A stretch of 64,000 nt of DNA, taken from Bacteroidota bacterium. GTDB taxonomy: Bacteria > Bacteroidota > Bacteroidia > Bacteroidales > JAAUTT01. Below the pieces are notes generated by a model. It worked only from the letters and a program-made list of their open reading frames with translations, ran no database searches and was not told the DNA's origin. The stretch is from contig JAEYWD010000115.1 in NCBI GenBank assembly GCA_023429135.1, positions 74,471 to 138,470 of the forward strand, given 5' to 3'. Below are positions 15,195 to 40,416 of this stretch, one piece after another (the first letter of the stretch is position 1; each line of letters begins with the position of its first letter). Made by a program: the position numbers and the translations under genes.

Positions 15195-17117
15195 CTAAAA
15201 GCTTTCAAAAAGTTTATCATCCTTCTCTGGACTTGACATGTTTACATTTATCCCGTTTGTATGCTCCAACACCGGGAGAGTGAAACGAGAACTATGTACT
15301 GGTTTTTTGGGAGATTTCTGCTGCTTTTGCAACCCGGATGTTTTTAACTTCCTACCCGTGTTAAAGAAGCTAATGGTTTCCTTAAGTAATTCTGCCTGAC
15401 CGGCAAGTTCTTCGGAGCTGGAGCTCATTTCTTCGGCAGCCGCAGCATTCTGTTGTGTAACCTGTGTAAACTGAATTACTGCCTTGGTTATTTGTTCCGA
15501 TCCGGCACGTTGTTCATTGCTCGATGCAGCTATTTCCTTTACAAGTTGTGCTGTTTTTTGTATCTCCGGAATAATTTTCATCATCATGTTTCCTGAGTCT
15601 TCCGTCACTTTCAGACTCGATGCCGAGAGCTCGTTAATTTCCACAGCCGCTTTCTGACTTACTTCAGCAAGTTTTCTTACTTCGGCAGCCACAACGGCAA
15701 AGCCTTTGCCCTGTTCTCCTGCGCGTGCTGCTTCAATGGCGGCATTAATGGCCAGAATATCGGTTTTGCCGGCAATGTCGTTTATAATTCTAATTTTTTC
15801 CGAGATCTGCCTGATGGCCTCCAGGCTCTTTTGTGCTGCGGTATTTACTTCCATCATACCTTGAGCCGAAGCTACGGCAATTTTCTCGGTAGCAATGGAG
15901 TTGTCGCTGTTCTGCTGAATTGATGATGTCATTTCTTCTATCGACGACGACACCTCTTCGGCCGATGCCGATTGCTCGTTGGCTCCCTCGGAAATCTGAA
16001 CTGCCGAGGTACTCATTTCACTACTGCTGATGGCTACATTTTCAGCGGCATCCATCACCTGACCCACAATTTCGCTCAAACGCGTTACCATGTTGGAAAG
16101 TGCTCCCATAAGTTCATCGTTTTCGGAGCGTTTTGCAAGGGTAATCGTTAAATCGCCCTGAGCCACCATTTTTGCTTTGGTGATAATTTCGTTGAATGAT
16201 TTGATTAAACTGTTCAGATTCTGTTTGATGTTGTCGAAATCACCATTGTAATTTTCGGTAATTAGTTCGGGCATATCTCCTTTTGCAATTCTGTCGACAT
16301 ATTCGGCAGCCACATTCAAGGGGGTAATTACAGCATCGAGCGTTTGGTTTATTCCAACCACAATGGCCCGGAATTCAGCATTTGTTTCTTCAGTATTGGC
16401 TCTTACAGTTAGCTTTCCGGCAATTGCCGCATCGATCAGATTTTTTGTTTGGTCTATTACCGATTTTATTATTTTCTGAATATTTGAGGCAATAAGTAAT
16501 CCTAGCGTTATAGCAACCAGAATTCCTGTGATAATTAAAAATATCATGGTTAAGGAAGTACTGTTTGCAAGTTTTGCGTTGTTTTCCGACATTCTTTTAC
16601 CGGTATCCAGGTTGTATTGAGTGCTTTCGTTGATGGATTTTTGCAGAGCTTCGTTAACTTTAAACCAGTTGCCCCGCATTAACTTGTAGGCATTGGTGTG
16701 GTCGTTCGCATAAAGTAATTTTCTGAATTCAGGGAAGTAAGCCGAATATGAATGATAATTCTTCTCCAAAGCTTCGCAATTAGCATGGTCAGTTTCGTCG
16801 ATAGCAGATTTTTTTAAAGTTGAAATGGTGATTTTAAATTCCTGATCGAGTTTGTCCATTTGTCCCAGGTATTTATCCAATTCCTGACGGTCGTCTGCAA
16901 TATAAGCATCGCGTATTAAAACCCGGATTTGCTGATAATAGGTTGTAACTTCTGTGCAGTGACCTAAGGATACAGCAACCGACTCGTATAATGTCGTATC
17001 GGCTTTTTTCATCTTATTCAGACTTAGAATAGAGTATAGCCCTATAACCCCGGCAATCAGGGCTACCAGTATAAAACTCATAAGGAGCTTTGTTCTGATT
17101 TTCATTTTGTTTAGCAT
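15195..17117 (-). CDS. Methyl-accepting chemotaxis protein (MCP1)
   Basis: 640 aa. TM1 ([23 protein letters not shown]), a periplasmic helical-bundle-like region, TM2, and one cytoplasmic HAMP-like module. The canonical signalling hairpin reads [37 protein letters not shown]-rich methylation helices; C-terminus LFESF. Confidence 0.95.
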   Translation of the reverse strand: MLNKMKIRTKLLMSFILVALIAGVIGLYSILSLNKMKKADTTLYESVAVSLGHCTEVTTYYQQIRVLIRDAYIADDRQELDKYLGQMDKLDQEFKITISTLKKSAIDETDHANCEALEKNYHSYSAYFPEFRKLLYANDHTNAYKLMRGNWFKVNEALQKSINESTQYNLDTGKRMSENNAKLANSTSLTMIFLIITGILVAITLGLLIASNIQKIIKSVIDQTKNLIDAAIAGKLTVRANTEETNAEFRAIVVGINQTLDAVITPLNVAAEYVDRIAKGDMPELITENYNGDFDNIKQNLNSLIKSFNEIITKAKMVAQGDLTITLAKRSENDELMGALSNMVTRLSEIVGQVMDAAENVAISSSEMSTSAVQISEGANEQSASAEEVSSSIEEMTSSIQQNSDNSIATEKIAVASAQGMMEVNTAAQKSLEAIRQISEKIRIINDIAGKTDILAINAAIEAARAGEQGKGFAVVAAEVRKLAEVSQKAAVEINELSASSLKVTEDSGNMMMKIIPEIQKTAQLVKEIAASSNEQRAGSEQITKAVIQFTQVTQQNAAAAEEMSSSSEELAGQAELLKETISFFNTGRKLKTSGLQKQQKSPKKPVHSSRFTLPVLEHTNGINVNMSSPEKDDKLFESF

Positions 17118-17425
17118 GACTGTGATTTTAGGTTGATTATTGTTAGAATATGATTGTATAAGAGATGAGACGAGCTAAGTCCGTCCCTGCGAAAGGACGA
17201 ATATTTAGTTTAATGAAATATGATCAGCGTTGTACCGGGCGAAGAAATATATTTTCGTTGCTTCGATACAGATTGAAAATGCGAACATATAAACACCGTA
17301 TTTATATGTCGGATATTAATTGAACTTTTTAAAAGATTAATCCGGGCAAAAGGATTTGTGTTCATATCTGATAACGTGGTAATGAAGAATAAATTTAATA
17401 GAAAGGCAGTGTTTATGCACCATGC

Positions 17426-17461
17426 GAACTAACGGTTTTAATCCTCCTAAAGGATGATTTT
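17426..17461 (-). promoter_or_regulatory. Conserved bipartite che-upstream motif, copy A
   Basis: The + strand reads GAACTAACGGTTTTAATCCTCCTAAAGGATGATTTT, about 310 nt upstream of the mcp1 start. It is near-identical to the copies at 38011 and 40570. Confidence 0.5.
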
Positions 17462-17527
17462 ACTTTTCATGCTTTTGGATGATTATTATAGACTTAGGAA
17501 ATGATTTTGCCGGTGCTGATAAGCAAA

Positions 17528-17555
17528 GGAGCTGTCCGTAGTTGTGGACAGCTCC
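17528..17555 (-). terminator. Candidate terminator of mcp2
   Basis: Perfect 10-bp stem GGAGCTGTCC / GGACAGCTCC with an 8-nt loop, 30 nt past the mcp2 stop. The minus-strand downstream sequence is TTTGCTTAT. Confidence 0.55.
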
Positions 17556-17584
17556 GTAATAAGGTTAAAAACTGGTCAGGGTGT

Positions 17585-19507
17585 TTAAAAACTTTCGAAA
17601 AATTTATCTCCTTTGTCGGTACTTCCCATGTTTACATTTATACCTGAGGCTTGATCCGATGCCGGAATATGCATACGTTGATTATGAACTGGTTTTTTGA
17701 GATTCTTCTGTTGCTTCAGCAATGGTGAAGATTTTACCTGCTTGCCTGTATTGAAGAAACCAATGGTTTCCTTCAGTAGCTCTGCCTGGCTGGCAAGCTC
17801 TTCGGAGCTGGAACTCATTTCTTCGGCAGCGGCCGCATTCTGTTGTGTTACCTGAGTAAACTGAATTACAGCCTTGGTGATCTGTTCCGAACCGGCACGC
17901 TGCTCGTTACTCGAAGCCGCAATTTCTTTTACAAGCTGAGCTGTCTTCTGAATTTCCGGTATTATTTTGTTCATCATACTTCCCGATTCTTCGGTCACCC
18001 TAAGGCTCGATGCCGAAAGTTCGTTAATTTCCACTGCCGCTTTCTGGCTTACCTCAGCCAGTTTCCGCACTTCGGCAGCTACAACGGCAAAGCCTTTACC
18101 CTGTTCTCCGGCACGCGCTGCTTCAATGGCTGCATTAATGGCCAGGATGTCGGTTTTGCCAGCTATATCGTTAATTATTTTGATTTTTTCCGATATCTGT
18201 CTTATGGCCTCCAGGCTTTTCTGAGCGGCTGTATTAACATCAATCATTCCCTGAGCTGAGGTCACCGCAATTTTCTCGGTAGTAATTGAGTTGTCGCTGT
18301 TTTGCTGGATGGTTGAAGCCATTTCTTCTATTGACGACGACACTTCTTCGGCTGATGCCGACTGCTCGTTTGCTCCTTCCGAAATTTGAACTGCAGAGGT
18401 GCTCATTTCATTACTGCTGATGGCTACATTTTCAGCGGCATCCATCACCTGCCCTACAATTTCGCTTAACCGGGCTACCATGTTGGAAAGCGCTCCCATC
18501 AATTCGTCGTTTTCCGAACGTTTGGCAAGGGTAATCGTGAGATCGCCCTGAGCCACCATTTTGGCTTTGGTGATTATTTCGTTAAACGAAATAATAAGAC
18601 TATTGAGGTTATTCTTTAGATTGTTAAAGTCGCCGTTGTAATTATCGGTAATAAGTTCGGGCATATCGCCCTTAGCTATTTTATCAACATAGTTGACGGC
18701 AACATTTAGCGGAGTGATAACTGCATCGAGGGTTTGGTTGATGCCCACCACAATTTCGCGAAACTCAACATTTGTTTCTTCGGCGTTGGCCCTGGTGGTG
18801 AGTTTGCCGGCAACCGCTGAATCAATAAGATTTTTGGTTTGCCCGATAACCGATTTGATAATTTTCTGAATGTTGGCTGAAATTACAAGCCCCAACGTTA
18901 TGGCCAGTATTATTCCGATAACAATCATTACAGTCATCGAAAGGGTTGCCGCAAGTGCCAGGCTCGTATTGTCATCAGATATTTTTTTGCCCGAATCGAC
19001 ATTGTATTGCACAATAAGATCGGTGGCATTCTGCATGGCTTCGTTCGCGTTAAACCAGTCGCCTCTCATAAGCTTGCGGGCATTGTCGTGGTCTTTTGCT
19101 GCAAGAAGCTTCCTGAATTCGGGGAGATATTGGTTGTAATCCGAGCGCGCTTTTTCGAGGGCTTCGATGTTTTTCTTATCGGTTTCGTCCAGAACTGTAG
19201 CCTTTAGCTTTTGTAGGTTTTCAAGAAATGCCTTATCAATATCCTCTATTCTTTTCAGATATGTTTCTGCTTCATTAATACTCTCGGCCATATACGCATC
19301 GCGTATGTTCACCCTTATTCTCTGGAAATTGGTTGCCAGTTCGGTGCAATAACTTAACGATACCGCTACATTTTCATAAAGGTTGGTGTCTGCTTTTTCG
19401 AGTTGGTTCAGGCTGCGTATGGAAAAGATACCGATTACACCTGCGATTAAAGCTACTAAGATGAAACCGGAAAGCAACTTGGTTCTTATTTTTAATCTGT
19501 TAAACAT
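17585..19507 (-). CDS. Methyl-accepting chemotaxis protein (MCP2)
   Basis: 640 aa paralog of MCP1 with the same architecture. The signalling domain is nearly identical at protein level. C-terminus FFESF. It starts 13 nt after the cheW1 stop. Confidence 0.95.
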
Positions 19508-19520
19508 ATTAATGGTTTTA

Positions 19521-19985
19521 TTAGTTAATAGAATTTTCTTTAATTGAACTTAGTTCGGCGTTTGAGAATACCTTTTCTACATTAAGGAGCATAGTAAAAT
19601 GTTTGCCTGTTTTAAAAATACCCTGGAGAAAGTCGGTGTTGAAATTGCTGCTCATGAGGGGCAAGGGCTTGATTTCCTCATCATTCAGCGATATTACATC
19701 TTCAACTTTATCTACAATAGCTCCTAACCTGAAAATGTTTTTGTCGCCGGAAACATCAATAACAATAATGTTGTAGGATGGAGAATCGCTTTTGGTATAA
19801 TTGAAGCGAACTCGGGTGTCGAAAACAGGAAGAACTTCTCCGCGGAAATTAATTATTCCGCTTATAAAAGCCGGAGCATTTGGAACAGGAGTGATATGCC
19901 CGTTTTGCAGTACCTCCAGCACTTTGTTCACATTTACAGCGAAGTTTTCGCCGCAAATGGTAAATGATAAATAGGTGCGAATCAT
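19521..19985 (-). CDS. cheW: Chemotaxis coupling protein CheW (copy 1)
   Basis: 154 aa single CheW-like domain ([45 protein letters not shown]). Confidence 0.9.
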
Positions 19986-20121
19986 ATGAAAGATTTATTT
20001 TATAAGTACAGATTTCGGGAAGAGAATTTTATCCCTGAGATAAGGTTAATAAACCACAGCGGCAGGAGCCGCTGTGGAGATAGAAAAGATCTATAATGAA
20101 AGATTTGATGATTAAAAGAAA

Positions 20122-20147: not shown

Positions 20148-20354
20148 AAGTTTATTTTCATTGCCTCTAACGGTTTTTTATTGAATTGAAATTAGTAGAA
20201 AATGATTGCTCATTTGCCATGCAAAAGGGTGGTTTCATCTCATACTAAAGGATGATTGTATGGTCGTACTTAAGGTTTAGTTTGTAATGGAAATGATTTT
20301 TTGTTGAATTTGACGCTTTAGCTTGCAGTCTGTTTATTATTTAAAACTCGTTTT

Positions 20355-21110: not shown

Positions 21111-21599
21111 AGAATTATTTCTTCCATTCCAACCTCTTTTTAATTTATTCGGGCTGTATACGTAGCTATTGGGAAAAGATAAGTGTGAAATATACTCGTA
21201 TTTTTTTAGTAAGCAATTTTCAGAAATGTGGTTTGGGAATGATAAGTTACTTCAGGAATGATTTTGATTTTTAACTGAATTTTAATTTCATTGGAATTTG
21301 TGAAGTTAAGGTACTCAGGGCTTTTTTTCTTCCGTACAACGATTAGTTTTTACTAAAAATTTATAATTTAGCTCCTGACTGGCAGAACATAATTATACAA
21401 TTCCAGATAGAAGATTCAGATTTACCCGGGAGCCAAAGAGATTTATTGTATAATCCGTTTTTGCAAAAGCGAAGTAAAAATTGTACTTGAATCGTTAATA
21501 AATTAACATGCCTGCAACTCACTTTTTCCAATGTGCGCGTTCTCCCGATGCCGGGCACACTTCCAATTATCCGGTGCTTTGCTATTCAGAAAAATCCCT

Positions 21600-21878
21600 G
21601 GATACATTTTACACATGCAAAACGCTTCCTGGCTCCGGCCAGCCTGCAAATTACACGTGCAAAATACATGCTGGCGCTGGCCACCCCCATATTGAACAAT
21701 GCAAAACCTGCCTGGCTGCAGCCAGAATCAGATTTACCCGTGCAAAATGCTACCTGGCTGCAGCCAGATCGTTATTTACACGTGTAAAATGGCACCTGGC
21801 TTTAGCCAGCTTGGTATTGCACCGTGTAATTTCATCCTGGCTGCAGCCAGCATGGTATTGCACCTCGAGATTTGTATA
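21600..21878. repeat. Tandem array of about 6.5 units of a 41-42-bp repeat carrying two alternating 14-bp palindromes
   Basis: CTGGCTGCAGCCAG-type palindromes sit at 21629, 21671, 21712, 21754, 21796 and 21837 (spacings 42, 41, 42, 42, 41). TTACACGTGCAAAA-type elements lie midway between them; the best copy is TTTACACGTGTAAA at 21775-21788. A degenerate copy lies further left, near 21414. Confidence 0.85.
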
Positions 21879-22002
21879 AAAACCCTTTAAAACCAATAAA
21901 ATGTAATGCCTTTCATCAGGAATTTAACATCATGCTGCCGGGCGGCAGGGTCTTAAGCTCCTGATAACTTTCGAATATTTTAACTCCTAATTTTTTTTAA
22001 TT

Positions 22003-23107: not shown

Positions 23108-24796
23108 ATGAATATAACCCGAAACAAACTACTTAAAGCTCCCACGGGAATACCCGGATTTGATGAAATTACCGGAGGAGGATTGCCGCAGGGCCGACCA
23201 ACCCTTGTATGTGGTGATGCCGGCTGCGGGAAAACACTTTTTTCCATGGAATTTCTTGTGCGTGGAGCTATGGAATTCAACGAACCAGGAGTATTTATGG
23301 CTTTTGAGGAAACTGAACAGGAACTTACAACCAACGTTTCTTCGCTTGGCTACGATCTCAACGATTTGGTTGCACGCAAATTATTGCTGCTCGACCATGT
23401 TCATGTTGAACGCAGCGAGATTGAAGAAACCGGCGAATACGACCTCGAAGGACTTTTTATCCGCCTTAATTTGGCAATAGACTCCATAAATGCAAAAAGA
23501 GTGGTACTGGATACCATTGAGTCTCTTTTTGCAGGTCTACCCAACGAGGCAATTCTGCGTGCCGAATTACGCCGTTTGTTCAGATGGCTTAAGGATAAGG
23601 GAGTTACCGTAATTATTACAGGCGAAAGAGGGAACGGAACCTACACACGCCATGGCCTCGAAGAGTATGTTTCCGATTGCGTAATCGTACTGGATCATCG
23701 TGTAACCAATCAAAGTTCTACCCGCAGGCTGCGGGTTGTTAAATACCGCGGATCAGCCCATGGTACCAACGAATATCCTTTCCTTATCGACAATACGGGT
23801 TTCTCAGTCCTTCCTATAACTTCGCTGGGTCTCGATCATCAGGTATCGTCCGAAAGAATTTCTTCCGGAATACCCGAGCTTGATGAAATGATGGGAGGCG
23901 AAGGATATTATGTTGGAAGCAGTGTTCTGGCTTCAGGTACCGCAGGTACCGGCAAAAGCAGCCTGGCTGCCCATCTGGTTCATGCCACATGTTCCCGGGG
24001 CGAAAAGGTTGTTTACTTTTCATTTGAAGAGTCTCCCAAACAAATTATGCGGAATATGCTTACAATCGGAATTGATATGGAGCCGTTTGTATCGGGAGGC
24101 CTGTTAAAATTTCATTCCACAAGACCTACTTTTTTTGGATTGGAGATGCACCTTACCGCAATGTATAAGGAAATACGCGATTTTAAGCCGTCGGTTGTAG
24201 TTGTGGATCCATTGAACAGTTTTGTTACTGGCGATAATGAGCTTGAAGCTAAGTCAGTTTCGATGCGACTGATCGATTATCTGAAAATGAATAAAATTAC
24301 AGGATTCTTTACAAGTCTTACCGCTGGAGGAAGTAACCTGGAAAGTACGGATATTTTCGTGTCATCATTAATCGATACCTGGATTCTTTTGCGCGATATA
24401 GAATCTGGAGGCGAGCGTAACCGTGGTATATACATTCTTAAATCGCGGGGTATGGCTCATTCGAACCAGATACGTGAGTTTATAGTTTCCAACAAAGGCA
24501 TTAAACTCGAGGATGTTTATGTAGGAATGGAAGGCGTGCTCACCGGTAGTGCCCGTATAGCCCAGGAATCGAGGGATGCTGCCGAGCATGAACTTTTGCA
24601 GCAGGAAATTGAACAGAAAAAATTTGTACTGGACCGGAAGCGACAGGCACTTTTGGCACAAATAGAATCCATGAAAACTGAATTTGAAGCTGAAGAATCG
24701 GAAATATTAAAAGGTATTGAATCAGAAAACAAGCAACTCGAGCGTTTTCATGAAAACAGAAAGCGAATGGCTCAAAGCCGCGGTGGTGAAAAATAA
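23108..24796 (+). CDS. kaiC: Circadian-clock-type ATPase/autokinase KaiC homolog with C-terminal extension
   Basis: 562 aa with duplicated RecA/KaiC domains. Walker A motifs GDAGCGKT and GTAGTGKS. Catalytic EE pairs MAFEE and [17 protein letters not shown] aligns by eye with cyanobacterial HISTITDTIILL. Also [16 protein letters not shown]. The tail is charged and heptad-like. Confidence 0.93.
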
Positions 24797-24807
24797 AAAT
24801 TTGTACA

Positions 24808-25128
24808 ATGATAAATCAAGATGACTTTAACGATAATCTAACTGAAGATGCCTGGATATTGAGGTTATATGTGGCAGGACAAACTCCCAAATGTTTACTT
24901 GCCTTTGCAAATTTGAAGAAGATTTGCGAAACTCAATTAAAAGGTAAATATAAAATAGAAGTGATTGACCTTCTTGTAAATCCTCAACTCAGCAAGGACG
25001 ATCAGATTCTTGCTATTCCTACACTGGTTCGAAAGTTACCCGTTCCCGTCAGGAAAATAATTGGAGATCTTTCGAATACCGAAAAGGTATTGGTGGGTTT
25101 GGACCTTATGCACAATAGAAATAATTAA
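24808..25128 (+). CDS. kaiB: KaiB (copy 1)
   Basis: 106 aa. Motifs [75 protein letters not shown]. Confidence 0.93.
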
Positions 25129-25132
25129 AAGT

Positions 25133-25474: not shown

Positions 25475-25489
25475 CATAAAAAATTAAGT

Positions 25490-31204: not shown

Positions 31205-34072
31205 TTAGAAGTTTTCGAACATTTTGTCGTCCTTGTCTATACCATTGAGGTCGACATTAACTCCCACGGCATGATCGGTCTGCCGGGCAGTTTTCCCCTG
31301 CAAACTTCCTCTTTTGCCTGCTTTGTGAGTAGGCTTCATCGGTTGGGTTATTTTGATCTGCCGTCCGGTGTTGAAGAAACTGATGGTTTCCTTCAGCAAC
31401 TCGGCCTGGCTTGCCAGTTCTTCGGAACTGGAGCTCATTTCCTCTGCTGCTGCTGCATTTTGCTGGGTTACCTGTGTAAACTGAATCACAGCTTTTGTGA
31501 TCTGTTCCGAACCCATTCTTTGCTCGTTGCTCGATGCTGCAATTTCCTTCACCAATTGAGCCGTCTTCTGGATTTCGGGAATTATCTTCATCATCATGCT
31601 TCCCGACTCCTCGGTAACGCGCAGACTTGAAGCCGACAATTCGTTAATTTCAACCGCTGCTTTTTGGCTTACTTCTGCAAGCTTACGCACTTCGGCAGCT
31701 ACCACCGCAAAGCCTTTGCCCTGTTCGCCGGCACGCGCTGCTTCAATTGCTGCATTAATGGCAAGAATGTCAGTTTTTCCGGCAATGTCGTTGATGATTT
31801 TGATTTTTTCCGATATCTGACGCATGGCTTCAAGGCTTTTTTGGGCAGCGGTGTTTACATCCATCATTCCCTGAGCCGAAGCAACAGCAATCTTTTCGGT
31901 CGTAATGGAGTTGTCGCTGTTCTGCTGGATTGTGGACGACATTTCCTCAATTGATGAGGATACTTCTTCTGCCGATGCCGATTGCTCGCTTGCACCTTCC
32001 GAGATCTGAACTGCCGAGGTGCTCATTTCGTTACTACTGGTAGCTACATTCTGAGCGGCTTCCATTACCTGGCTAACAATTTCGCTCAATCGGGCAACCA
32101 TTTCGGAGAGTGCTCCCATTAACTCATCATTTTCTGAACGCTTGGCAAGGGTAATGGTTAAGTCCCCCTGAGCCACCATTTTGGCTTTGGTTATTATTTC
32201 GTTGAAAGCATTGATGAGGCTGTTAAGATTATTTTTGATGCTGTTAAAGTCGCCGTTGTAATTGTCGGTTATCAAATCCGGCATATCACCTTTGGCTATT
32301 TTATCCACATACATGGCGGCCACGTTCAATGGACCAATTACTGCATCTAGCGTATTATTCACTCCTTCAACAATTTTGCGGAAATCGCCCTGATGACGCG
32401 AAGCATCTGCGCGGGTAGCGAGCTTCCCTTCTACGGCAGCGTTAGAGAGGAGGGTTGCATCGCTGACAAGTTCACTCACAGCTTCCTTAACTTGTTGTAA
32501 GCTGTTGTTAATTCTTTCGAACTGTTTCTTTACTTCCTGGGTATGTTCATCGGCCTCTCTGATGTTGAGGTTGAATTCCAGACTTCCTTTTGAAAGATGC
32601 CTGAGGTTGCCTTCTATTCTTTCAACCTCAGATTTTGTATAATCACTTACTCTGATTATTGATGTTAAATCGGTTACAACTTCAACAAAGCCGGTATTCT
32701 CGCCTTTTGCATTTTTTAGGTAAGCGGTATCCTGTTTACAACTCATTCCACACCAATCGAAGAAACTTTGATTAGTACCTTTTAATAATTGCTTTATTCC
32801 GCAATTTGCTGTGTTGCATATATTTGCTCCGGCATTACTGCATGCTTTTCCATAACCCGATTCACGGTCTTTTATAACGCCCTGATCAATCATCAGCCTC
32901 TCAAATTCTTTATTCATGTAGGTCCACGTCATATTTTCGTCGGTTACATGAATCGGGAATGGGACAGCATCAATGATGGATTCGTACCACACAGTTTTAT
33001 CTACAACCGTATCCAGGGTGGCATTAACTCCTTCTACAGTTTTACGAAATTCACCCTGATGATTCTGGGCATTGGCTCTGGTAGAGAATTTACCCTCTAT
33101 TGCTGCATTGGAAAGCATCTTGGAGTCTGTAACAAGTAGGTTTATAGCATCGATACACTGATTGAGGTTGCTCTTTATCTCATTGAAGTCGCCATTGTAA
33201 TTGTCGGTGATTTTCTCGGGTATGTTACCTTTGGAAATGCGGTCCACGTATTCGGCAGCTACATTGAGGGGCCCAATAACGGCATCGAGGGTCTTATTGA
33301 TACCTACCACAATTTCGCGGAATTCTTCGTTGGTGTCCTCGGTTTTGGCGCGCGTGGCAAGACGACCTGCTACGGCAGCATCAACCAGATCTTTGGTTTG
33401 TTTAATAACCGATTTGATGATGTTCTGAATGTTGGTGGCAATAATGAAACCGAGCACTATAGCTGCTAGCAGCGAAAGCGCCACCAAAGCAATCATGAAC
33501 GTTGTTGCGTTATCTGCTAAAGCTGTGTTTCCATCGGAAGTTTCTTTGGCCAGGGTTAGCTTACTTTGCTGCAGCTCATCCAGAGCTTTCTGGCAAACAT
33601 CATTATCCGATTTCATTTTGCCGTTCATAATCATTACCGCGCCATTAATGTTGTCATCCTTCAACATTTTTTTGATGTCAGGTACCGAAGACACGTAAGC
33701 GTCAAAAGATTCGTTCACTTTTTTAACAATTTCTTTACCTGCTTCAGTCAGCGTTGTTGCTTCTACCTTTGCTTCCGAATTTCGGAAAGTTTTGCTCAGC
33801 TCTTCAATCCGGGCCAGTTTTGCTTCACGATCTTCGTTATTTGTGGCATAAACGGCATCGCGCACATTTACTCTTACTCGCTGAAACGAAGTGGACATGT
33901 CCATCATATCGGCCATTGGTACTGTAATTTTTTCGTATAATTTTTTATCGGCAGCATCCAGTTGTTTTATTCTGGAAATGCCCATGTAACCTATTACACC
34001 TGCCAATGAAGCCACTAATAGAAAGCTTACCAGTAATTTTGTGCGAATTTTCATGTTTTTAACCCAGTTCAT
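31205..34072 (-). CDS. Methyl-accepting chemotaxis protein with extended multi-module cytoplasmic region and Cys-rich PAS-like insert (MCP4)
   Basis: 955 aa with the same layout as MCP3. The insert carries CSNAGANICNTANCGIKQ...FFDWCGMSCKQD. C-terminus MFENF. Confidence 0.93.
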   Translation of the reverse strand: MNWVKNMKIRTKLLVSFLLVASLAGVIGYMGISRIKQLDAADKKLYEKITVPMADMMDMSTSFQRVRVNVRDAVYATNNEDREAKLARIEELSKTFRNSEAKVEATTLTEAGKEIVKKVNESFDAYVSSVPDIKKMLKDDNINGAVMIMNGKMKSDNDVCQKALDELQQSKLTLAKETSDGNTALADNATTFMIALVALSLLAAIVLGFIIATNIQNIIKSVIKQTKDLVDAAVAGRLATRAKTEDTNEEFREIVVGINKTLDAVIGPLNVAAEYVDRISKGNIPEKITDNYNGDFNEIKSNLNQCIDAINLLVTDSKMLSNAAIEGKFSTRANAQNHQGEFRKTVEGVNATLDTVVDKTVWYESIIDAVPFPIHVTDENMTWTYMNKEFERLMIDQGVIKDRESGYGKACSNAGANICNTANCGIKQLLKGTNQSFFDWCGMSCKQDTAYLKNAKGENTGFVEVVTDLTSIIRVSDYTKSEVERIEGNLRHLSKGSLEFNLNIREADEHTQEVKKQFERINNSLQQVKEAVSELVSDATLLSNAAVEGKLATRADASRHQGDFRKIVEGVNNTLDAVIGPLNVAAMYVDKIAKGDMPDLITDNYNGDFNSIKNNLNSLINAFNEIITKAKMVAQGDLTITLAKRSENDELMGALSEMVARLSEIVSQVMEAAQNVATSSNEMSTSAVQISEGASEQSASAEEVSSSIEEMSSTIQQNSDNSITTEKIAVASAQGMMDVNTAAQKSLEAMRQISEKIKIINDIAGKTDILAINAAIEAARAGEQGKGFAVVAAEVRKLAEVSQKAAVEINELSASSLRVTEESGSMMMKIIPEIQKTAQLVKEIAASSNEQRMGSEQITKAVIQFTQVTQQNAAAAEEMSSSSEELASQAELLKETISFFNTGRQIKITQPMKPTHKAGKRGSLQGKTARQTDHAVGVNVDLNGIDKDDKMFENF

Positions 34073-34163: not shown

Positions 34164-34754
34164 TTAAATACTTGTGATTCTTTCGCTTTTCATAAGCTCA
34201 AAATTTCTGTCGTTAAAGCATAACATGGCCCCATGACCAGGATAAATTGAATTTATTTTCCTTTTTTTCAAACGTGTCAATGCTTTCTCGTTTTCGGCGA
34301 AAAGAGTAGCATTAGTTTGAGAAATTGGAAATGATGTGTCTCCTGAGAAAAGAATTCCTTCTTTCTCATTGTACAGACAAATTGAATCGTAACTATGATA
34401 GGTGATATGGAAAACTTCAAATTGCTGGTCACCTATCTTCAATATTTCACCATCGTGTAAAACATGATCTACATGTTTCAGGTGAGAATTGAATGCATAA
34501 ATTTTTGGATGATAGGCTAGTTTTATTTCCTGTAGAATTGCTGCATGGTCCGAATGGCTGTGTGTTAATATCACCTGATCGATTTTATTTTTACCAAGGC
34601 CTGTATTAATACACTCGATTTTGCGGATAATGTTTATGTCACTGCCTACATCGATAAGTGTATTAAGATCATCCATGGCATTCCATGTTCCCATGACCAG
34701 AAAAACGTTGGCTGTGTAAAGATTGCTGTTGTGGGTAAGGTTGGCGATTTTCAT
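34164..34754 (-). CDS. MBL-fold metallo-hydrolase
   Basis: 196 aa with the metallo-beta-lactamase signature ILTHSHSDHAA, a downstream His/Asp (FSGDT) and PGHG. It lies between cheR and mcp4 on the same strand. Confidence 0.85.
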   Translation of the reverse strand: MKIANLTHNSNLYTANVFLVMGTWNAMDDLNTLIDVGSDINIIRKIECINTGLGKNKIDQVILTHSHSDHAAILQEIKLAYHPKIYAFNSHLKHVDHVLHDGEILKIGDQQFEVFHITYHSYDSICLYNEKEGILFSGDTSFPISQTNATLFAENEKALTRLKKRKINSIYPGHGAMLCFNDRNFELMKSERITSI

Positions 34755-34837: not shown

Positions 34838-35443
34838 TTATATTTTTTCGTGTAATTGTGCGTAATCGAGCAACTTTCTGAATTTTCCGCTTAGTTCTTC
34901 GGGCATGGACTGGGTGTTTTCCATAGCCAGAAGTCCTCCGGTAAGTAACATGTCGTGATATAAAGAAAGAACTTCAACACGTTGAGGATAACTAAAATGT
35001 AGCAGTACATTTTTACAGATAATAAGGCTGTAATCGTTACGCAATGGTTTTAAATTCAGTAAATCATGTTTTTTGAATGTTACAAGACTTCTTAACTCCT
35101 GATTGACAATGAAGTGATCTTCTTTTTCGTGCGGACTGAAATACTTCTGAAAGAGGGGCGTTGGTATGCGTTGCAAGTGATCCTTATGGTAAATTCCTTC
35201 TGTAACGGTTTTCCCGAAGTCAACATTTTCGTTATCGATGTCGATAGCAAGAATTTTAACATTACGGAGTGCGAATTTTCCCATACTTTCGGCTAAAAGG
35301 ATGGCAAATGTGTAAGTTTCCATTCCCATAGCGCAACCAGCATTCAGAATGTGGATACTGCTGCGGCCCATTGATAACGGAACCAGCTTTTGCACTGTCT
35401 GTGTGAGTATTTGTTCGTCCCTGAAAAAGAATGTGAATGCCAT
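34838..35443 (-). CDS. cheR: CheR-type receptor methyltransferase lacking the N-terminal helical domain
   Basis: 201 aa. It aligns by eye to the E. coli CheR catalytic domain from the FFR motif onward: FFFRDEQ, ILNAGCAMGMETYTFAILLAE, AIDID, EGIY, IICKNVLLHF, GGLLAMENTQ. Only 4 nt separate it from the cheW2 stop, leaving no room for a CheR_N domain. Confidence 0.85.
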   Translation of the reverse strand: MAFTFFFRDEQILTQTVQKLVPLSMGRSSIHILNAGCAMGMETYTFAILLAESMGKFALRNVKILAIDIDNENVDFGKTVTEGIYHKDHLQRIPTPLFQKYFSPHEKEDHFIVNQELRSLVTFKKHDLLNLKPLRNDYSLIICKNVLLHFSYPQRVEVLSLYHDMLLTGGLLAMENTQSMPEELSGKFRKLLDYAQLHEKI

Positions 35444-35447
35444 TAAA

Positions 35448-35936
35448 TCAGGAATTTGCTAAGGTGCCGTTTAATTCGTTTGTTTCTTTAATCGTTTTCA
35501 GTTCGGTACCTGAGAATACACGTTCTACATTGAGCAGCATAATAAATTCATTGCCGAGTTTGTAAATTCCGTGCAGAAAATCGGTATTAAACTCTTTGCT
35601 CATAGCTGGTACGGGTTTAATATCAGCATCTTCGATGGATATCACGTCTTTCACTTTGTCTACAACAGCTCCCAAACGGAACATGTCCACTCCTTCCGAA
35701 ACATCGAGAACGATGATATTGTACGATTCGTCATCGTTTCTTTCGGGTAAGTTAAAACGCACACGTGTTTCGAAAACTGGTACTACATCGCCCCGGAAAT
35801 TGATAATGCCACGGATATAAGTCGGGGCGTTGGGAACAGGGGTAATGTGTTCTTCCTGCAATACTTCCAGTACTTTGGCTACATTTACAGCGTAATGGTC
35901 ACCGCAAATGGTAAACGATAGATAAGTTCTGATCAT
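35448..35936 (-). CDS. cheW: Chemotaxis coupling protein CheW (copy 2)
   Basis: 162 aa paralog of CheW1 ([35 protein letters not shown]). Confidence 0.9.
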   Translation of the reverse strand: MIRTYLSFTICGDHYAVNVAKVLEVLQEEHITPVPNAPTYIRGIINFRGDVVPVFETRVRFNLPERNDDESYNIIVLDVSEGVDMFRLGAVVDKVKDVISIEDADIKPVPAMSKEFNTDFLHGIYKLGNEFIMLLNVERVFSGTELKTIKETNELNGTLANS

Positions 35937-35955
35937 AGTTTTAATGTATTAAAGG

Positions 35956-37956
35956 TTATAGACTTTCGGCTGTTAAGAATAATTCGTTTGTATCCATCAT
36001 AAAAGCAAGTTTGCCGTCACCAAGCTGACTGGCTGCACCAATGCACTTCTGATCCCGGAAAAGATTCCCCAGCGGTTTGAGCACTGCCTGGTGTCCACCA
36101 ATAATGGTGTCGGTGAGAAGGGCTAACTGACGGTCGTTATTCCTGAGGATAATGGCTTTTGTAATTTCGTGGTAAGTTCCACCCAAATGAAATTGATTTC
36201 GAATATCAACAAACGGGATAAGTTGGTTTTCAAAAGGAATGGTACAGGTATGCTTTCTTTTTTCAATTTCTTTCGATGGAATTTGCATACAGATGTTGAT
36301 GTCGGAAATCGGAACGGTGAAGAAAGTGTCCTGAACTTTAAATAGCAGGGTGTCTATTATAGCGATGGATTGTTGTAACTTCAAGGTGAAAGATGTGCCA
36401 ACGCCTGTCTCGGTATCAACTATTACTTCGCCGCGAAGCTCCATAATTTTACGTTTTACAACATCCATTCCTACACCACGACCCGATACTTCGGTGAGGT
36501 TTTGGGCAGTAGAAAATCCTGGCATGAAAATCATATCCAGCAGTTCGCTTCTTGTAGGTTTGTCGGTGGCTTTGATAATGCCTTTTTCTACAGCCTTTTT
36601 CTGAATTTTTTCCAAATCAACACCGCTACCATCATCTTCAATCCTGATTACAACAACATTGCCATTATTACTTGCTGATATTTTAATGGTTCCCGACTCT
36701 GGTTTTCCTTTTTGCCTTCTTATGTGAGGCATTTCAATGCCATGATCAATGCAGTTGCGGATAATATGCATAAGCGGATCGCTTAACTGATCAATGGTGC
36801 CTTTGTCAACCTCAGTGTCAATGCCTTCGGTAATAAGTTCCACATCTTTGTCGAGCTGGCGTGAAAGATCGCGGATTAATCTCTTGAATCTCAGGATAGA
36901 TTCACTCAACGGTACCAGTCGTATGTCGAGTGCATTGTTCCGGAACTGCTTGGAGAGATTGTCGAGTCTTTCGGTATAGGGCCATATTTTTTCGAATTTA
37001 CTGTCGCTGGTATTAAGATTAAATTGTGAGTTAAGTGTAATTAGCTCGCTCACCAGGTACATTAAATGATCCAGTTTTGCAGAATCTACGGAGATACGTT
37101 TAACCTGTTTTTTGCCATTATCGGCTTTCTCAGTTGATTTTTCGCACGGGTTCTGATTCTGTGCTGTAGAAGAAGTGTCTCTTTTCTCCTGGTATTCCAC
37201 AAATTCGATGATCGATTGTTCGTTATCCATGCTTATGGGCATTGCATCTTCAAACAGGTTGCGGTTGGTTAACCTGGTGATAGTACAATCGTCCTCTATA
37301 AACATAAATACTTCGCGGATATCATTCTCGCTTGCACTGCTGTATAGAATAATGCTCCATGTATCTATCCCCTCATTACTCAGGTGATCGAGACGCGAAA
37401 TCTCAAATTGTCCTAACGATGCAAGGTCATGAAATAAACTGGTAATGCTGATGCCCCGGAAGTAGATCTGTTCATTCGCTCTGATGAGAATATGCCACGT
37501 GCTTGGGGTGATTTTAGAGCTTGAATTATTTTCTTCGCTAACTGATGAGCCGGACATAATAGCAGGAATAACTTCCAATATAGCTTTAATTTCGGCCATA
37601 ATGCTGTTTTGATTTGCCTGGTTCTCTGGCACCTGAAGTTGCTCGTCGTTCAGGAGTTTGCGAATATGGTCAACCGAATGGAAAGTAATGTCGAAGATCT
37701 TTTTGTCAAAACGTGCTATCTTATCGCGAATAGCCTGATAAAGGCTCTCGAGATTATGGGTGAACTCACTTACATAATCGAAACCATACATGCCGCTAAC
37801 CCCTTTGATGGTGTGCATGGCCCGGAATGCAGATTCAATTAGATCCTTGTCCTCCGGTGAAGCTTCAAGGTCCAGAAGATCTTTTTCCAACTGGTCCAAT
37901 AGTCCCGACGCTTCTTCCAGGAATACTAATTTGAATTTTTGTAAAATTGGGTCCAT
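35956..37956 (-). CDS. cheA: Chemotaxis histidine kinase CheA (no fused receiver)
   Basis: 666 aa from the ATG at 37954-37956. Hpt/P1 domain with FRAMHTIKGVSGMYGF, a dimerisation region (VDSAKLDHLMYLVSELI), HATPase boxes (HIIRNCIDHGIE, DDGSGVD, GRGVGMDVV), and a C-terminal CheW-like P5 domain. Confidence 0.93.
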   Translation of the reverse strand: MDPILQKFKLVFLEEASGLLDQLEKDLLDLEASPEDKDLIESAFRAMHTIKGVSGMYGFDYVSEFTHNLESLYQAIRDKIARFDKKIFDITFHSVDHIRKLLNDEQLQVPENQANQNSIMAEIKAILEVIPAIMSGSSVSEENNSSSKITPSTWHILIRANEQIYFRGISITSLFHDLASLGQFEISRLDHLSNEGIDTWSIILYSSASENDIREVFMFIEDDCTITRLTNRNLFEDAMPISMDNEQSIIEFVEYQEKRDTSSTAQNQNPCEKSTEKADNGKKQVKRISVDSAKLDHLMYLVSELITLNSQFNLNTSDSKFEKIWPYTERLDNLSKQFRNNALDIRLVPLSESILRFKRLIRDLSRQLDKDVELITEGIDTEVDKGTIDQLSDPLMHIIRNCIDHGIEMPHIRRQKGKPESGTIKISASNNGNVVVIRIEDDGSGVDLEKIQKKAVEKGIIKATDKPTRSELLDMIFMPGFSTAQNLTEVSGRGVGMDVVKRKIMELRGEVIVDTETGVGTSFTLKLQQSIAIIDTLLFKVQDTFFTVPISDINICMQIPSKEIEKRKHTCTIPFENQLIPFVDIRNQFHLGGTYHEITKAIILRNNDRQLALLTDTIIGGHQAVLKPLGNLFRDQKCIGAASQLGDGKLAFMMDTNELFLTAESL

Positions 37957-38010
37957 ATGAATGTGATTTGTAAATAAAATTACTATTAAGGCTGGGCAAA
38001 AAAGCAATCC

Positions 38011-38047
38011 AAACTGACGGTTTTAGGTCGGTAAAAAGTATGATTTT
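38011..38047 (-). promoter_or_regulatory. Conserved bipartite che-upstream motif, copy D
   Basis: The + strand reads AAACTGACGGTTTTAGGTCGGTAAAAAGTATGATTTT, 55 nt upstream of the cheA start. Confidence 0.5.
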
Positions 38048-38190
38048 TCCGGCGACTAAAGTATTACCAATGGACTCATGCGGTTTTCCAATAAATTGTG
38101 AAGTCAGTTTTGGGAAAGAGGATTGTAGCAGGCATTGAATCTTAAATTCTCATTACCATTACAATCCTCTTTAATTTGCAGGGCTATTTG

Positions 38191-40416
38191 TCAGAAATTT
38201 TCAAACAGCTTATCATCTTTATCAGTTACATCGAGATTTACATTTATGCCTGGATTGTGTTCTCCTGTTTTAATATTCTTCGGTTGTTGTGTGCTTTTCC
38301 TGAAATTTTTAGGAGAAGCTTTAGTCGGTTGAATCGTTTTTACCTGACGTCCTGTATTGAAGAAACTTATTGTTTCTCTGAGCAACTCGGCCTGGCCGGC
38401 TAATTCTTCTGCGCTGGAACTCATTTCTTCAGCCGATGCTGCATTTTCCTGAGTAACCTGTGTAAACTGGTTAACAGCCTTGGTGATTTGATCAGATCCC
38501 ATACGTTGCTCGTTGCTCGATGCTGCAATTTCTTTAACAAGTTGCGCTGTTTTTTGGATTTCAGGAATTATCTTCATCATCATACTGCCCGATTCCTCTG
38601 TTACTTTTAAGCTTGATGCTGAAAGCTCGTTTATTTCTACAGCAGCTTTTTGGCTAACCTCAGCAAGTTTGCGGACTTCAGCAGCCACTACTGCAAAACC
38701 TTTGCCTTGTTCTCCTGCACGGGCAGCTTCAATGGCTGCGTTAATGGCTAAAATGTCGGTTTTGCCTGCAATATCATTTATTATCTTAATTTTTTCCGAA
38801 ATTTTTCTGATTGCTTCCAGGCTTTTCTGTGCAGCATTATTTACATCAATCATACCCTGAGCAGATGCTACTGCTATTTTTTCTGTGGCTACAGAGTTAT
38901 CACTGTTTTGTTGAATACTTGAAGCCATTTCTTCAATAGAGGAGGAAACCTCTTCAGCCGAGGCCGATTGCTCGTTAGCACCTTCGGCAATTTGAACTGC
39001 CGAAGAACTCATTTGATTACTACTTGTGGAAACATTCTGCGCTGCTTCCATAACTTGGCTAACAATTTCACTAAGTCGTACAACCATGTCGGAAAGAGCA
39101 CCCATTAACTCGTCATTTTCTGAGCGTTTTGTAAGTGTTACCGTCAGATCGCCTTGTGCAACCATTTTAGCCTTGGTAATAATTTCATTGAAGGCGTTAA
39201 TAAGAATATTTAAGTTGTTTTTAATTGCATTGAAATCGCCATTGTAATTTTCAACGATAATTCCAGGCATATCGCCTTTCGATATTTTTTCAACATATGA
39301 AGCTGCTACATTTAACGGCCCGATAACAGCGTCGAGTGTGTAGTTTACTCCCTCTACAATTTTTCTGAAGTCGCCCTCATGCCTGCCTGCGTCAGCTCGT
39401 GTTATGAGTTTGCCTTCCACTGCCGCCTTTGTAAGCGAGGCAGCGTCTTCAATGAGTAGATTTATCGCATCTATACAGGTGTTGAGATTGTTTTTAATTT
39501 CGTTAAAATCGCCATTATAACTATCTGTAATTTTAGGAGGGATGTGTCCTTTAGAGATACGATCTACATAATTGGCTGCAACATTAAGCGGGTTAATAAC
39601 AGCATCGAGAGTTTTGTTAATGCCAATTACTATTTCCCGAAATTCTTCATTTGTATCTTCCGGTCTGGCTCTTACTGATAATTTCCCTGCTACTGCTGAG
39701 TCGACCAATTCTTTTGTTTGTTTTACAACAGATTTAATAATGCTTTGAATATTAGCAGCAATAAAAAAACCAAATATTAAAGCAAGTACAACAGCGAATA
39801 ATAGCGCAGTAACTAAAATATTTATTGAACTGGAGGCATGGTCGTTTGCGTCTTTTACACTTTGAGCGGCAACCTTTTTGTTAATTTCTACAAGGTTGTT
39901 CAATAGTTTCTCTGCATTGGAAAAGGGATCTGCTATAGTAATCAAAGCATAATCACTATATAGTTGGTAAGTTTTGTCGGAGGGGTCGGCATCGTAATTA
40001 AGTGACAATTGAACCCCTTGAAGGTGCAGATTCCAATAAATATCCCATGCTTTAACAAAATCTTTCCAAACTTTTGCTTCTTCTTCCGTTTGAGGAAGTG
40101 CCTCGTAAATGTTCCGTGCATCGTCATACCTTTTTTTTGCATTGTCAAATCTCTGGTAAGCAGCCTTCCGGGCTTCTTTGGAGGCGATTCTCGAAAGCAG
40201 GGCATTCTCTGCAGCATCAACAGCGGTTTGAGCTTCACTCATAATTAAAAGCGATTCGATACTTGGCATTCTAACCTGGGCTATCTCGTCCTGAGAGGCT
40301 TTAATAGTTTTCATGCCATTGTATCCTATATAGCCGGTTAAGCAAGCTAAGGATACCACTATAACAAAACTCATTAAAAGTTTTGTTCTTATTTTCATCT
40401 TGTTAAACCATTTCAT
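38191..40416 (-). CDS. Methyl-accepting chemotaxis protein with two cytoplasmic HAMP-like modules (MCP5)
   Basis: 741 aa from the ATG at 40414-40416 (MKWFNKMKIRTKLL, compare MCP4 MNWVKNMKIRTKLL); the listed ORF start is a TTG. The signalling domain is the same as in the other MCPs. C-terminus LFENF. Confidence 0.93.
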   Translation of the reverse strand: MKWFNKMKIRTKLLMSFVIVVSLACLTGYIGYNGMKTIKASQDEIAQVRMPSIESLLIMSEAQTAVDAAENALLSRIASKEARKAAYQRFDNAKKRYDDARNIYEALPQTEEEAKVWKDFVKAWDIYWNLHLQGVQLSLNYDADPSDKTYQLYSDYALITIADPFSNAEKLLNNLVEINKKVAAQSVKDANDHASSSINILVTALLFAVVLALIFGFFIAANIQSIIKSVVKQTKELVDSAVAGKLSVRARPEDTNEEFREIVIGINKTLDAVINPLNVAANYVDRISKGHIPPKITDSYNGDFNEIKNNLNTCIDAINLLIEDAASLTKAAVEGKLITRADAGRHEGDFRKIVEGVNYTLDAVIGPLNVAASYVEKISKGDMPGIIVENYNGDFNAIKNNLNILINAFNEIITKAKMVAQGDLTVTLTKRSENDELMGALSDMVVRLSEIVSQVMEAAQNVSTSSNQMSSSAVQIAEGANEQSASAEEVSSSIEEMASSIQQNSDNSVATEKIAVASAQGMIDVNNAAQKSLEAIRKISEKIKIINDIAGKTDILAINAAIEAARAGEQGKGFAVVAAEVRKLAEVSQKAAVEINELSASSLKVTEESGSMMMKIIPEIQKTAQLVKEIAASSNEQRMGSDQITKAVNQFTQVTQENAASAEEMSSSAEELAGQAELLRETISFFNTGRQVKTIQPTKASPKNFRKSTQQPKNIKTGEHNPGINVNLDVTDKDDKLFENF

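Follow-up and report, generated by a model that had tools for sequence, protein, structure and literature searches.

A split chemosensory gene cluster in a Bacteroidales-type genome, with a hybrid kinase and a NarL-type regulator as its candidate output

We analyzed a 64-kb stretch of a Bacteroidota bacterium contig (JAEYWD010000115.1, positions 74,471 to 138,470; hereafter the window) that carries the genes of a Che-like chemosensory system in two separate units. Unit I comprises cheW1, mcp2, and mcp1; unit II comprises mcp5, cheA, cheW2, a short cheR, a gene for a metallo-β-lactamase-fold (MBL) hydrolase, mcp4, and mcp3. All lie on the minus strand (Table 1). The original prediction for this DNA, made from the sequence alone, had listed eleven genes, and the open reading frame (ORF) list together with Pfam and NCBIfam searches reproduced them with the same coordinates, strand, and domains. 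Its description of the flanks as Bacteroidota hallmarks holds as well: SusC/SusD genes with an ECF sigma/FecR pair, Porph_ging (GLPGLI), DUF5686, and LytS/LytTR were all confirmed, flanks that are typical of Bacteroidia. In ENA the source contig is a metagenome contig of 190,644 bp. No Rfam families or tRNAs were found in scans of the window. For comparison with the window we fetched homologous loci, which are given L-numbers (L001 and so on) below.

The system is defined as much by missing genes as by those present; statements on missing flagella, CheY, and CheB refer to the window and to the neighborhoods of ∼20 related loci. A tblastn search of the 64 kb with probes from other fetched loci gave no match to the CheB catalytic domain or to CheD, and Pfam searches of nearly all ORFs of ≥100 amino acids (aa) gave no CheZ, CheC, CheX, flagellar, or pilus gene, in agreement with what had been claimed. 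Flagellar genes were likewise absent from the fetched loci that were read, and CheB and CheD from 19 out of 20 fetched loci of the lineage, the exception (L053) being more distant and having a fused CheA-receiver. The view of a Che-like system with no CheY, CheB, CheD, or motor genes nearby in a Bacteroidales-type genome is borne out, and the named homologs are Bacteroidales. Two statements on receivers need qualification. Six of the seven receiver proteins counted earlier in the window are found by Pfam, but the seventh, the LuxR/GerE protein at 11977-12612, has an N-terminus that resembles a degenerate receiver by eye only. It is also literally true that neither unit contains a receiver, but a kinase/regulator pair (12802-14903) ends 292 bp from mcp1. 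No remnant of a cheA pseudogene was detected at unit I (tblastn).

This pair is of particular interest since the output partner of the system had been described as not evident. Comparison across genomes does not support that description: in relatives, cheA is immediately preceded, on its own strand, by genes for a REC-PAS-HisKA_3 kinase and for a NarL-type regulator, in a cassette of five to seven genes. Read by eye, the hybrid kinase in the window has the receiver aspartate D59 (in SDQRMP), the H-box ELHDGLG, and the ATP-binding motifs, and the NarL-type regulator, whose gene is convergent with mcp1, has D57, T85, and K107. The same-strand order kinase (∼480 aa)-regulator (REC-GerE, ∼220 aa)-cheA-cheW-mcp is found in L004, L005, L085, L088, and L089. 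The flanks of these same-strand cassettes are unrelated, with glycoside hydrolases in two and a TonB receptor with thioredoxin in a third. Two JGI contigs (7,928 and 22,523 bp) carry every part of the window system side by side in a seven-gene row, kinase-regulator-cheA-cheW-cheR(201)-MBL-mcp. The cassette kinases are 41%-46% and the cassette regulators 58%-70% identical to their counterparts in the window, and the window regulator is 52%-89% identical to the regulators beside cheA in L004, L005, L006, L016, L084, and L085. In L016 a NarL-type regulator alone precedes cheA. Judged from gene order and sequence, the window system is a rearranged copy of a conserved Bacteroidales cassette, kinase-regulator-cheA-cheW-short cheR-MBL-mcp.

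The arrangement seen in the window also has counterparts. The convergent layout of the pair recurs in L006, L047, L084, and L090. Locus L084 is syntenic with the unit I side of the window (DAGK, 66% identity; APP1, 74%; the LuxR-type helix-turn-helix [HTH] gene; kinase, 71%; regulator, 89%; DUF6261) and carries two cheA-cheW-mcp triplets at the place of unit I. One 451-kb contig holds both L090 and the unit II ortholog L083 (CheA, 77% identical), so the split arrangement is conserved in a relative. Orthologs of the LuxR-HTH gene, 41%-43% identical, directly precede the hybrid kinase in L084, L086, and L087, and another stands before the kinase in L090, where Pfam gives a weak Response_reg match. 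When the CheA and kinase homolog lists (top 120 each) are compared, with contigs paired by identical size in base pairs rather than by identifier, 27 contigs of >5 kb are in common (≤42 kb in 21 cases). A further match, at 2,139 bp, must be due to chance, because such a contig cannot hold both genes. A metagenome scan with the hybrid kinase yielded only two short loci, with a layout consistent with the window and no che genes within reach.

Single-domain receivers beside cheA point the same way. Those in L080, L006, and L082 are 36%-44% identical (76-113 bits) to the receiver of the window NarL-type regulator, compared with 25%-27% (37-43 bits) to Escherichia coli CheY, with no CheY match for one of them. 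Next to cheA in Geobacteraceae (L009), Ignavibacteria (L021), and Saccharicrinis (L028), the receivers are CheY-type (34%-40%, 79-96 bits). Locus L080 comes from a complete 4.47-Mb genome, in which L082 is a further CheA locus. By gene neighborhood, the genomic partner of CheA in this lineage is a NarL-family receiver, with or without an HTH domain. In more distant CheA loci (approximately L054-L078), it is common for a receiver match to follow cheA directly and for the receptors to lack a tail. We also note a second Che locus in the genome of the closest relative: L006, from the same bin as L001, carries between 1748 and 12031 a NarL-like single receiver (144 aa), cheA (39%), cheW, and mcp, and convergent with these che genes are those for a NarL-type regulator and for a kinase of 1559 aa whose end is HisKA_3-like. 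A comparable additional Che locus may exist in the source genome outside the window.

On this evidence we regard it as moderately probable that the two units and the pair at 12802-14903 form one Che-like system with a transcriptional output through the NarL-type receiver and the hybrid kinase. The five receptors, in one array with two CheW proteins, would control CheA; phosphorylated CheA would donate to the receiver of the HisKA_3 hybrid kinase, to the NarL-family receiver, or to both; and the hybrid kinase would act on the NarL-type regulator, changing transcription, with no motor switching. HisKA_3 kinases are the canonical partners of NarL-family regulators, and a kinase with an N-terminal receiver needs a phosphodonor. 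For adaptation, the short CheR would methylate the canonical receptor glutamates, with the MBL hydrolase as the leading candidate for the esterase step.

The relay logic would be akin to that of two known systems. In Rhodospirillum centenum, the receiver of the kinase CheS3 (REC-REC-PAS-HWE) is phosphorylated by CheA3, and CheY3 by CheS3 alone (PMC3868531). In both cases the che genes are accompanied by a gene for a second kinase that has a PAS domain and a receiver at its N-terminus, and the output is non-motility in R. centenum, as is the output proposed here. The two systems differ in the kinase (HisKA_3 with one receiver here, HWE with two there), in CheA (no fused receiver here), in the absence of CheB, in the receptors (34-heptad [34H] with a pentapeptide here), and in the final regulator, which is a DNA-binding NarL-type protein here and the single-domain CheY3 there; the host is a member of the Bacteroidales rather than an alphaproteobacterium, and the phosphate flow proposed here is read from genes. 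A Che array with a transcriptional output is thus known in kind from R. centenum Che3, while the kinase family, the regulator type, the receptor class, and the lack of CheB differ. In Myxococcus xanthus, Che3 modulates the CrdS/CrdA pair, in which CrdA is a DNA-binding regulator, and has been reported to act as a phosphatase (as summarized in PMC3868531). That system too joins a Che-like module to a classical kinase/DNA-binding regulator pair with an output in gene expression, which is what we propose here. CrdA, however, is NtrC-type and CrdS is membrane-bound with no receiver, whereas the window has a NarL-type regulator and a kinase with a receiver. Literature searches found no described Bacteroidota Che system and no Che/NarL relay.

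The two units also share a candidate regulatory element. A bipartite motif of ∼31 nt, AATCATCCTTT-N9-10-AAAACCGTTAG (AATCATMCTTT-N9-10-AAAACMGTYAG), has three copies in the window compared with 0.00 expected, upstream of mcp1, cheA, and mcp5, and its first half has four matches at one mismatch or fewer (0.76 expected), including one upstream of cheW1 (Table 1). Several copies contain an ATCAT-N8-10-ATGAT inverted repeat. Similar elements occur ∼90-120 nt before cheA in L001, L002, L003, L083, and L084 and before cheW in L090; none was seen in the more distant kinase-regulator-cheA cassettes. The shared motif suggests that units I and II are co-regulated. A terminator-like hairpin (17528-17555, minus strand; 10 pairs, seven of them G-C, followed by TTTGCTT) lies ∼30 nt past the mcp2 stop codon, and together with the motif copy at 17429-17459 suggests that mcp1 is transcribed separately from cheW1-mcp2. 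Scans for sigma-70 promoters and terminators gave counts equal to the shuffled expectation, with a promoter model that does not cover Bacteroidota.

Several observations weigh against an output through the pair. In the cassettes, 258-490 nt separate the regulator gene from cheA, so cheA may have its own promoter and the pair could regulate che expression instead of serving as the output. The unit II-type cassettes of L001, L003, and L083 have no kinase/regulator pair within the available flanks, although in the L083 genome a pair lies ∼20-35 kb away on the same contig. Every phosphotransfer link is drawn from gene neighborhood, and the shared contigs from identical sizes in base pairs. Finally, related genomes carry further CheA loci (L006 and L082), so the source genome may hold other Che parts.

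The gap upstream of cheA also counts in favor of an alternative in which the pair controls che transcription and the real CheA acceptor lies elsewhere, for instance at the single-domain receiver 50985-51410 or outside the window. The partly palindromic motif upstream of the che units could be the operator of the regulator; receiver 50985-51410 is the best match to E. coli CheY in the window (29% identity, 2.6e-12); and a distantly similar module of PAS kinase, single receiver, and hybrid kinase follows the che genes in L082, although at only 24%-38% identity this is generic similarity. The NarL-type receivers without an HTH in L080, L006, and L082 cannot be transcription factors and fit phospho-acceptors better, and the hybrid kinase's own receiver needs a donor, for which CheA is the only other kinase in the cassette. 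We consider this alternative unlikely as a replacement for an output through the pair, although the two roles are compatible and feedback is possible.

The five receptors carry the tip AGEQGKGF and match MCPsignal at 1e-27 to 1e-29. They vary little in the signaling domain and tail, which are 75%-88% identical, and far more in their first 200 residues, which are only 21%-55% identical. Near-identical signaling domains with divergent sensors indicate one kinase-coupling class with five sensor specificities, and we infer that the five receptors, two CheW proteins, and single CheA form one array. The heptad class, which the original prediction had not assigned, is 34H for all five: compared with the 36-heptad Tsr (3zx6, 6s1k, 1qu7), mcp1 has seven residues fewer in the N-arm and seven fewer in the C-arm, symmetrically about the tip, and the length from tip to end is identical in all of them. 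The Tsr methylation sites 297, 304, 311, and 493 align to (N)EQSAS, EEVSSS, EEM[TAS]S[ST], and EEMSSS in each receptor; all of the aligned positions are glutamate, so deamidation would not be needed. A basic linker of ∼40 residues and a strictly conserved x-F-E-x-F pentapeptide end each receptor, and a similar C-terminal pentapeptide is found on receptors in Geobacteraceae, Nitrospirota, and Ignavibacteria loci.

The receptor complement changes quickly. In the 93%-identical relative L001 (9377-10001), mcp5 is missing, and the motif and cheA come immediately after an aspartokinase-like gene; three receptors follow the MBL gene in L083, and a single receptor of 1559 aa is present in L080. In mcp3 and mcp4 a PAS domain is inserted between HAMP units, as in Pseudomonas aeruginosa Aer2/McpB (Che2), where poly-HAMP arrays also have a PAS domain between HAMP units, and among NCBIfam models the receptors score best with Vibrio Aer2 (194-253 bits, far short of its cut-off of 1200). 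Unlike Aer2/McpB, the receptors here are membrane-bound with a periplasmic four-helix-bundle (4HB) domain, are 34H rather than 36H, and include a four-cysteine PAS domain. The four cysteines lie in the mcp3 PAS at residues 410-426 (29762-29812, minus strand), and poly-HAMP receptors from L002 (Bacteroidales) and from L010, L012, and L033 (Desulfuromonadaceae/Geobacteraceae) carry an almost identical one, CYDHF[RK]TxxCKTxxCAC. At the corresponding position mcp4 has a different cysteine-rich stretch. Searches of the PDB gave no sequence homolog of the mcp3 PAS domain, which may be a metal or iron-sulfur (redox) sensor.

CheA ends in its CheW-like domain with no fused receiver, as had been stated: Pfam agrees, and a public gene call gives the same 666-aa protein. 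The longest ORF begins with TTG at 38007, but in the public record the identical protein starts with the ATG at 37956. Across 40 homologs, neither the P1 histidine (His48) nor any of the N, G1, F, and G2 boxes varies, and CheA appears catalytically complete. A predicted model (mean predicted local distance difference test [pLDDT], 75) shows P1, P3, P4, and P5 and, at residues 152-230, the usual P2 site, a folded α/β domain; the domain at this position is conserved in the alignment of 40 homologs.

Receptor length and pentapeptide place the system with the Geobacter type 2 / F8 lineage. Receptors of the 34H class are assigned to F8 systems (PMC11253619), and the Geobacter "type 2 E. coli-like" clusters combine 34H receptors and the pentapeptide consensus EFEKF with many non-che ORFs (PMC2577667). 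Like the window, these clusters have 34H receptors ending in x-F-E-x-F/Y and the same pair of short CheR and MBL hydrolase, and Geobacter-type clusters hold the closest CheA relatives outside Bacteroidia (35%-37% identity). The F8 grouping is made by receptor class and by the nearest CheA outside Bacteroidia, which lies in clusters with 34H and pentapeptide receptors. The Geobacteraceae and Ignavibacteria clusters carry a CheY-type receiver, full-length CheR, CheD, and CheB, whereas the Bacteroidales cassette has none of these and has the HisKA_3/NarL pair instead; no such F8 companion (CheY-type regulator, full-length CheR, CheB, or CheD) was found in the window or in orthologous Bacteroidales cassettes. 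The alternative cellular function (ACF, Wsp-like) class was considered and rejected, as there is no CheA-receiver fusion and the receptors have a tail and a pentapeptide. A CheA-receiver hybrid kinase and receptors without a pentapeptide tail are features of the ACF class.

The F8 assignment bears on the possibility that this is an ordinary motility chemotaxis system with its parts scattered, CheY, CheB, CheR, and flagellar or gliding/type IV pilus genes lying elsewhere in the genome. The original prediction had taken a complete flagellar regulon with cheY/cheB elsewhere in the genome, together with a CheA of a flagellar class, as pointing in that direction. By name the system does carry such a class through its receptors (34H with pentapeptide, F8), but the class name does not establish function. 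The F8 and Geobacter type 2 clusters with such receptors do carry CheY, CheB, and CheD; the pentapeptide hints at a binding partner beyond the short CheR, for example full-length CheR or CheB in trans; extra Che loci exist in related genomes (L006 and L082), and complete clusters in other Bacteroidales (L013, L028, and L040). A CheR or CheB acting in trans in the source genome is possible. Against scattered motility genes, however, CheY-type receiver, CheB, CheD, CheZ/C/X, and motility genes are absent from the 64 kb and from the cassettes of ∼15 relatives with different flanks, the receiver beside cheA in this lineage is NarL-type, and flagellated members of the class Bacteroidia are not known. 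An ordinary motility system here seems improbable to us.

The short CheR and the MBL hydrolase, the proposed adaptation enzymes, form a conserved pair. The short CheR opens at an FFFRD motif and aligns to residues 83-236 of Bacillus subtilis CheR (5FTW), and also to 1BC5. The N-terminal helical domain (CheR_N) is missing; full-length CheRs are ∼100 residues longer at this end. All 13 members of the short family begin with MAFTFF(F/M)RD and are 198-214 aa long. The β-subdomain loop, YFSPHEKEDH, has two residues fewer than in the Salmonella and full-length CheRs and one more than in B. subtilis; it is acidic, in contrast to the basic loop, with a three-residue insertion, of pentapeptide-binding CheRs. 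Wherever either gene is found, the MBL gene lies directly 3′ of the short cheR: in 13 fetched loci from three phyla, in the window, and on the two JGI contigs. Besides the window and the JGI contigs, these are L001, L003, L016, L080, and L083 in Bacteroidales; L009, L010, L011, L033, and L041 in Geobacteraceae/Desulfuromonadaceae; and L019, L021, and L031 in Ignavibacteria, the two genes overlapping by 4 bp in L021. Clusters with the pair in Geobacteraceae and Ignavibacteria also hold full-length CheR, CheD, and CheB.

The MBL motifs HxHxDH, H, D, and H are kept in 14 out of 14 sequences from three phyla, and H65, H67, D69, H70, H120, D139, and H174 are invariant in 41 homologs; in all, 1002 homologs were found at E < 1e-10. 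The nearest solved folds to the predicted model (pLDDT, 88.4) are YcbL, BLEG-1, and glyoxalase II, and sequence and profile searches agree. Since the receptors have canonical methylation sites but the system lacks any known demethylase, the MBL hydrolase stands out as the candidate for an esterase. We put forward, as a tentative proposal that is more likely wrong than right, that the short CheR and the MBL hydrolase are an unrecognized writer/eraser pair for receptor glutamate methylation, with the hydrolase possibly docking on the x-F-E-x-F pentapeptide. The fixed order of the two genes, the all-glutamate sites, and the lack of CheB and CheD would fit such a role. If true, the pair would work alongside CheR/CheB in Geobacteraceae and Ignavibacteria and would be the sole adaptation system in these Bacteroidales, and the MBL hydrolase would be the first receptor methylesterase other than CheB.

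A different function for the hydrolase is that of an ODP-like metal or oxygen sensor feeding the array, as in Treponema denticola, instead of an adaptation enzyme. As with the ODP of T. denticola and Thermotoga maritima, an MBL-fold protein is encoded inside a che operon here and matches the Pfam ODP family (PF19583), at 29.8 bits against a cut-off of 27.2; the cysteine-rich PAS regions of mcp3 and mcp4 and the adjacent hemerythrin-like gene could also be taken in its favor. MBL-fold ODP proteins have been recruited to che operons (PMC7319448, PMC7666581). The Lactamase_B score of 72.1 bits is far higher, which together with the fold and sequence matches indicates that the ODP hit is not membership; no entry named ODP is among the PDB sequence, profile, and fold matches listed for the protein. 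ODP and flavodiiron proteins use an HxExDH ligand motif. The motif here is the hydrolase-type HxHxDH (HSHSDH in the window), invariant in the family, the nearest folds are glyoxalase-II-like, and the fixed partner is a methyltransferase, the short CheR, rather than a sensor-less receptor. The weak ODP score, the motif, and the folds led us to reject the protein as ODP-like, and a sensor role of this kind is very unlikely.

Close relatives of the window CheA, in a scan of one genome per species, are found only in uncultured Bacteroidetes/Bacteroidales bins (93%, 79%, 74%, 62%, and 56% identity); Geobacteraceae, Desulfuromonadaceae, Nitrospirota, and Ignavibacteria follow at 32%-37%. Public data hold at least 120 distinct CheA clusters at ≥50% identity, with all named ones assigned to Bacteroidales. 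Receptors with a pentapeptide have been reported to be abundant in Bacteroidetes (PMC7390727). In addition, the cultured Marinilabiliaceae species Saccharicrinis aurantiacus (L028, 6979-16424) has the order DUF4154-mcp-STAS-cheY-cheA-cheW-cheW-cheR-kinase-cheD-cheB, with a receptor ending in NYEKF, and similar complete clusters occur in L013 and L040. By its gene content, the L028 cluster is a complete Che cluster of another type in the class Bacteroidia. The earlier statement that most Bacteroidota lack Che pathways is too strong in view of these CheA clusters, receptors, and full cluster.

The remaining genes of the window have less clear or no relation to the system. Between the two che units lies a KaiBC-type module (23108-26782, plus strand): kaiC at 23108-24796 (NCBIfam PRK09302, 731 bits against a cut-off of 408), followed by kaiB genes at 24808-25128 and ∼25061-25474 and a PAS histidine kinase at 25490-26782. 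A gene convergent with mcp3 (27250-27963, plus strand; 237 aa) matches the hemerythrin HHE family weakly (2.2e-4, short of the Pfam cut-off) and was detected in no related locus, only in the source contig. A functional link of the KaiC-KaiB-KaiB-kinase module or the hemerythrin-like gene to the che genes was rejected, as neither has a homolog beside che in the other fetched loci. At 48309-53386 (plus strand) lies a module in which the single-domain receiver (50985-51410) is encoded together with a four-PAS histidine kinase and a two-receiver hybrid kinase; a module distantly resembling it (24%-38% identity) directly follows cheA-mcp-mcp-cheW-REC in L082, and it is a secondary candidate for cross-talk with CheA. 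A Cys/His/Ala-rich ORF of 123 aa with no family match (21508-21879, plus strand), between a ZIP-like gene and DUF6261, may not be a gene. The genes at 53501-60772 (plus strand), encoding an ECF sigma factor, a FecR anti-sigma factor, a SusC-like TonB receptor with STN, and SusD, are a standard trans-envelope-signaling polysaccharide utilization locus unrelated to the che genes.

Table 1. Positions of che genes, the neighboring kinase/regulator genes, and upstream motif copies in the window
Feature	Position	Strand	Description
LuxR/GerE HTH protein	11977-12612	+	211 aa; GerE 1.4e-16; N-terminus degenerate receiver-like by eye
Hybrid kinase "HK3"	12802-14244	+	480 aa; REC-PAS-HisKA_3-HATPase_c (Pfam)
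NarL-family response regulator	14247-14903	+	218 aa; receiver and GerE HTH (Pfam)
mcp1	15195-17117	-	4HB_MCP_1, HAMP_2, MCPsignal; 34H; C-terminus LFESF
Bipartite motif AATCATCCTTT-N9-AAAACCGTTAG	17429-17459	-	∼310 nt upstream of mcp1
mcp2	17585-19507	-	4HB_MCP_1, HAMP_2, MCPsignal; 34H; C-terminus FFESF
cheW1	19521-19985	-	CheW domain; 154 aa; 69% identical to cheW2
Motif first half AATCATCCTTTA	20246-20257	-	∼260 nt upstream of cheW1
mcp3	28133-31039	-	Partial 4HB, HAMP, PAS with 4-Cys motif, three HAMP_2; 34H; C-terminus LFESF
mcp4	31205-34072	-	4HB, HAMP, Cys-rich PAS-like region, three HAMP_2; 34H; C-terminus MFENF
MBL hydrolase	34164-34754	-	196 aa; Lactamase_B 7.6e-20; HSHSDH
Short cheR	34838-35443	-	201 aa; CheR (PF01739) 1.5e-35; catalytic SAM (S-adenosylmethionine) domain only
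cheW2	35448-35936	-	CheW domain; 162 aa
cheA	35956-37956	-	666 aa; Hpt, H-kinase_dim, HATPase_c, CheW; no receiver
Bipartite motif	38014-38045	-	Upstream of cheA; 5′ end ∼89 nt before ATG
mcp5	38191-40416	-	4HB_MCP_1, two HAMP_2, MCPsignal; 34H; C-terminus LFENF
Bipartite motif	40573-40604	-	∼160-190 nt upstream of mcp5

Anoxic sediments, digesters, and guts are rich in Bacteroidales, which are usually described as being without Che signaling; a widespread, conserved Che-like cassette is now shown in this order. In this system, a multi-receptor array, endowed with gain and a memory in the form of methylation, appears to feed into a classical kinase/regulator pair and, through it, into gene expression. 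If true, it would be a third, phylogenetically independent example of such a relay after R. centenum and M. xanthus, derived from an F8-like rather than an ACF-like ancestor, and it offers a specific candidate for the outputs of non-motility Che systems, which have long been assumed but seldom defined. The pair of short CheR and MBL hydrolase, which Geobacter and Ignavibacteria also have, is in turn a testable candidate for a new adaptation enzyme.

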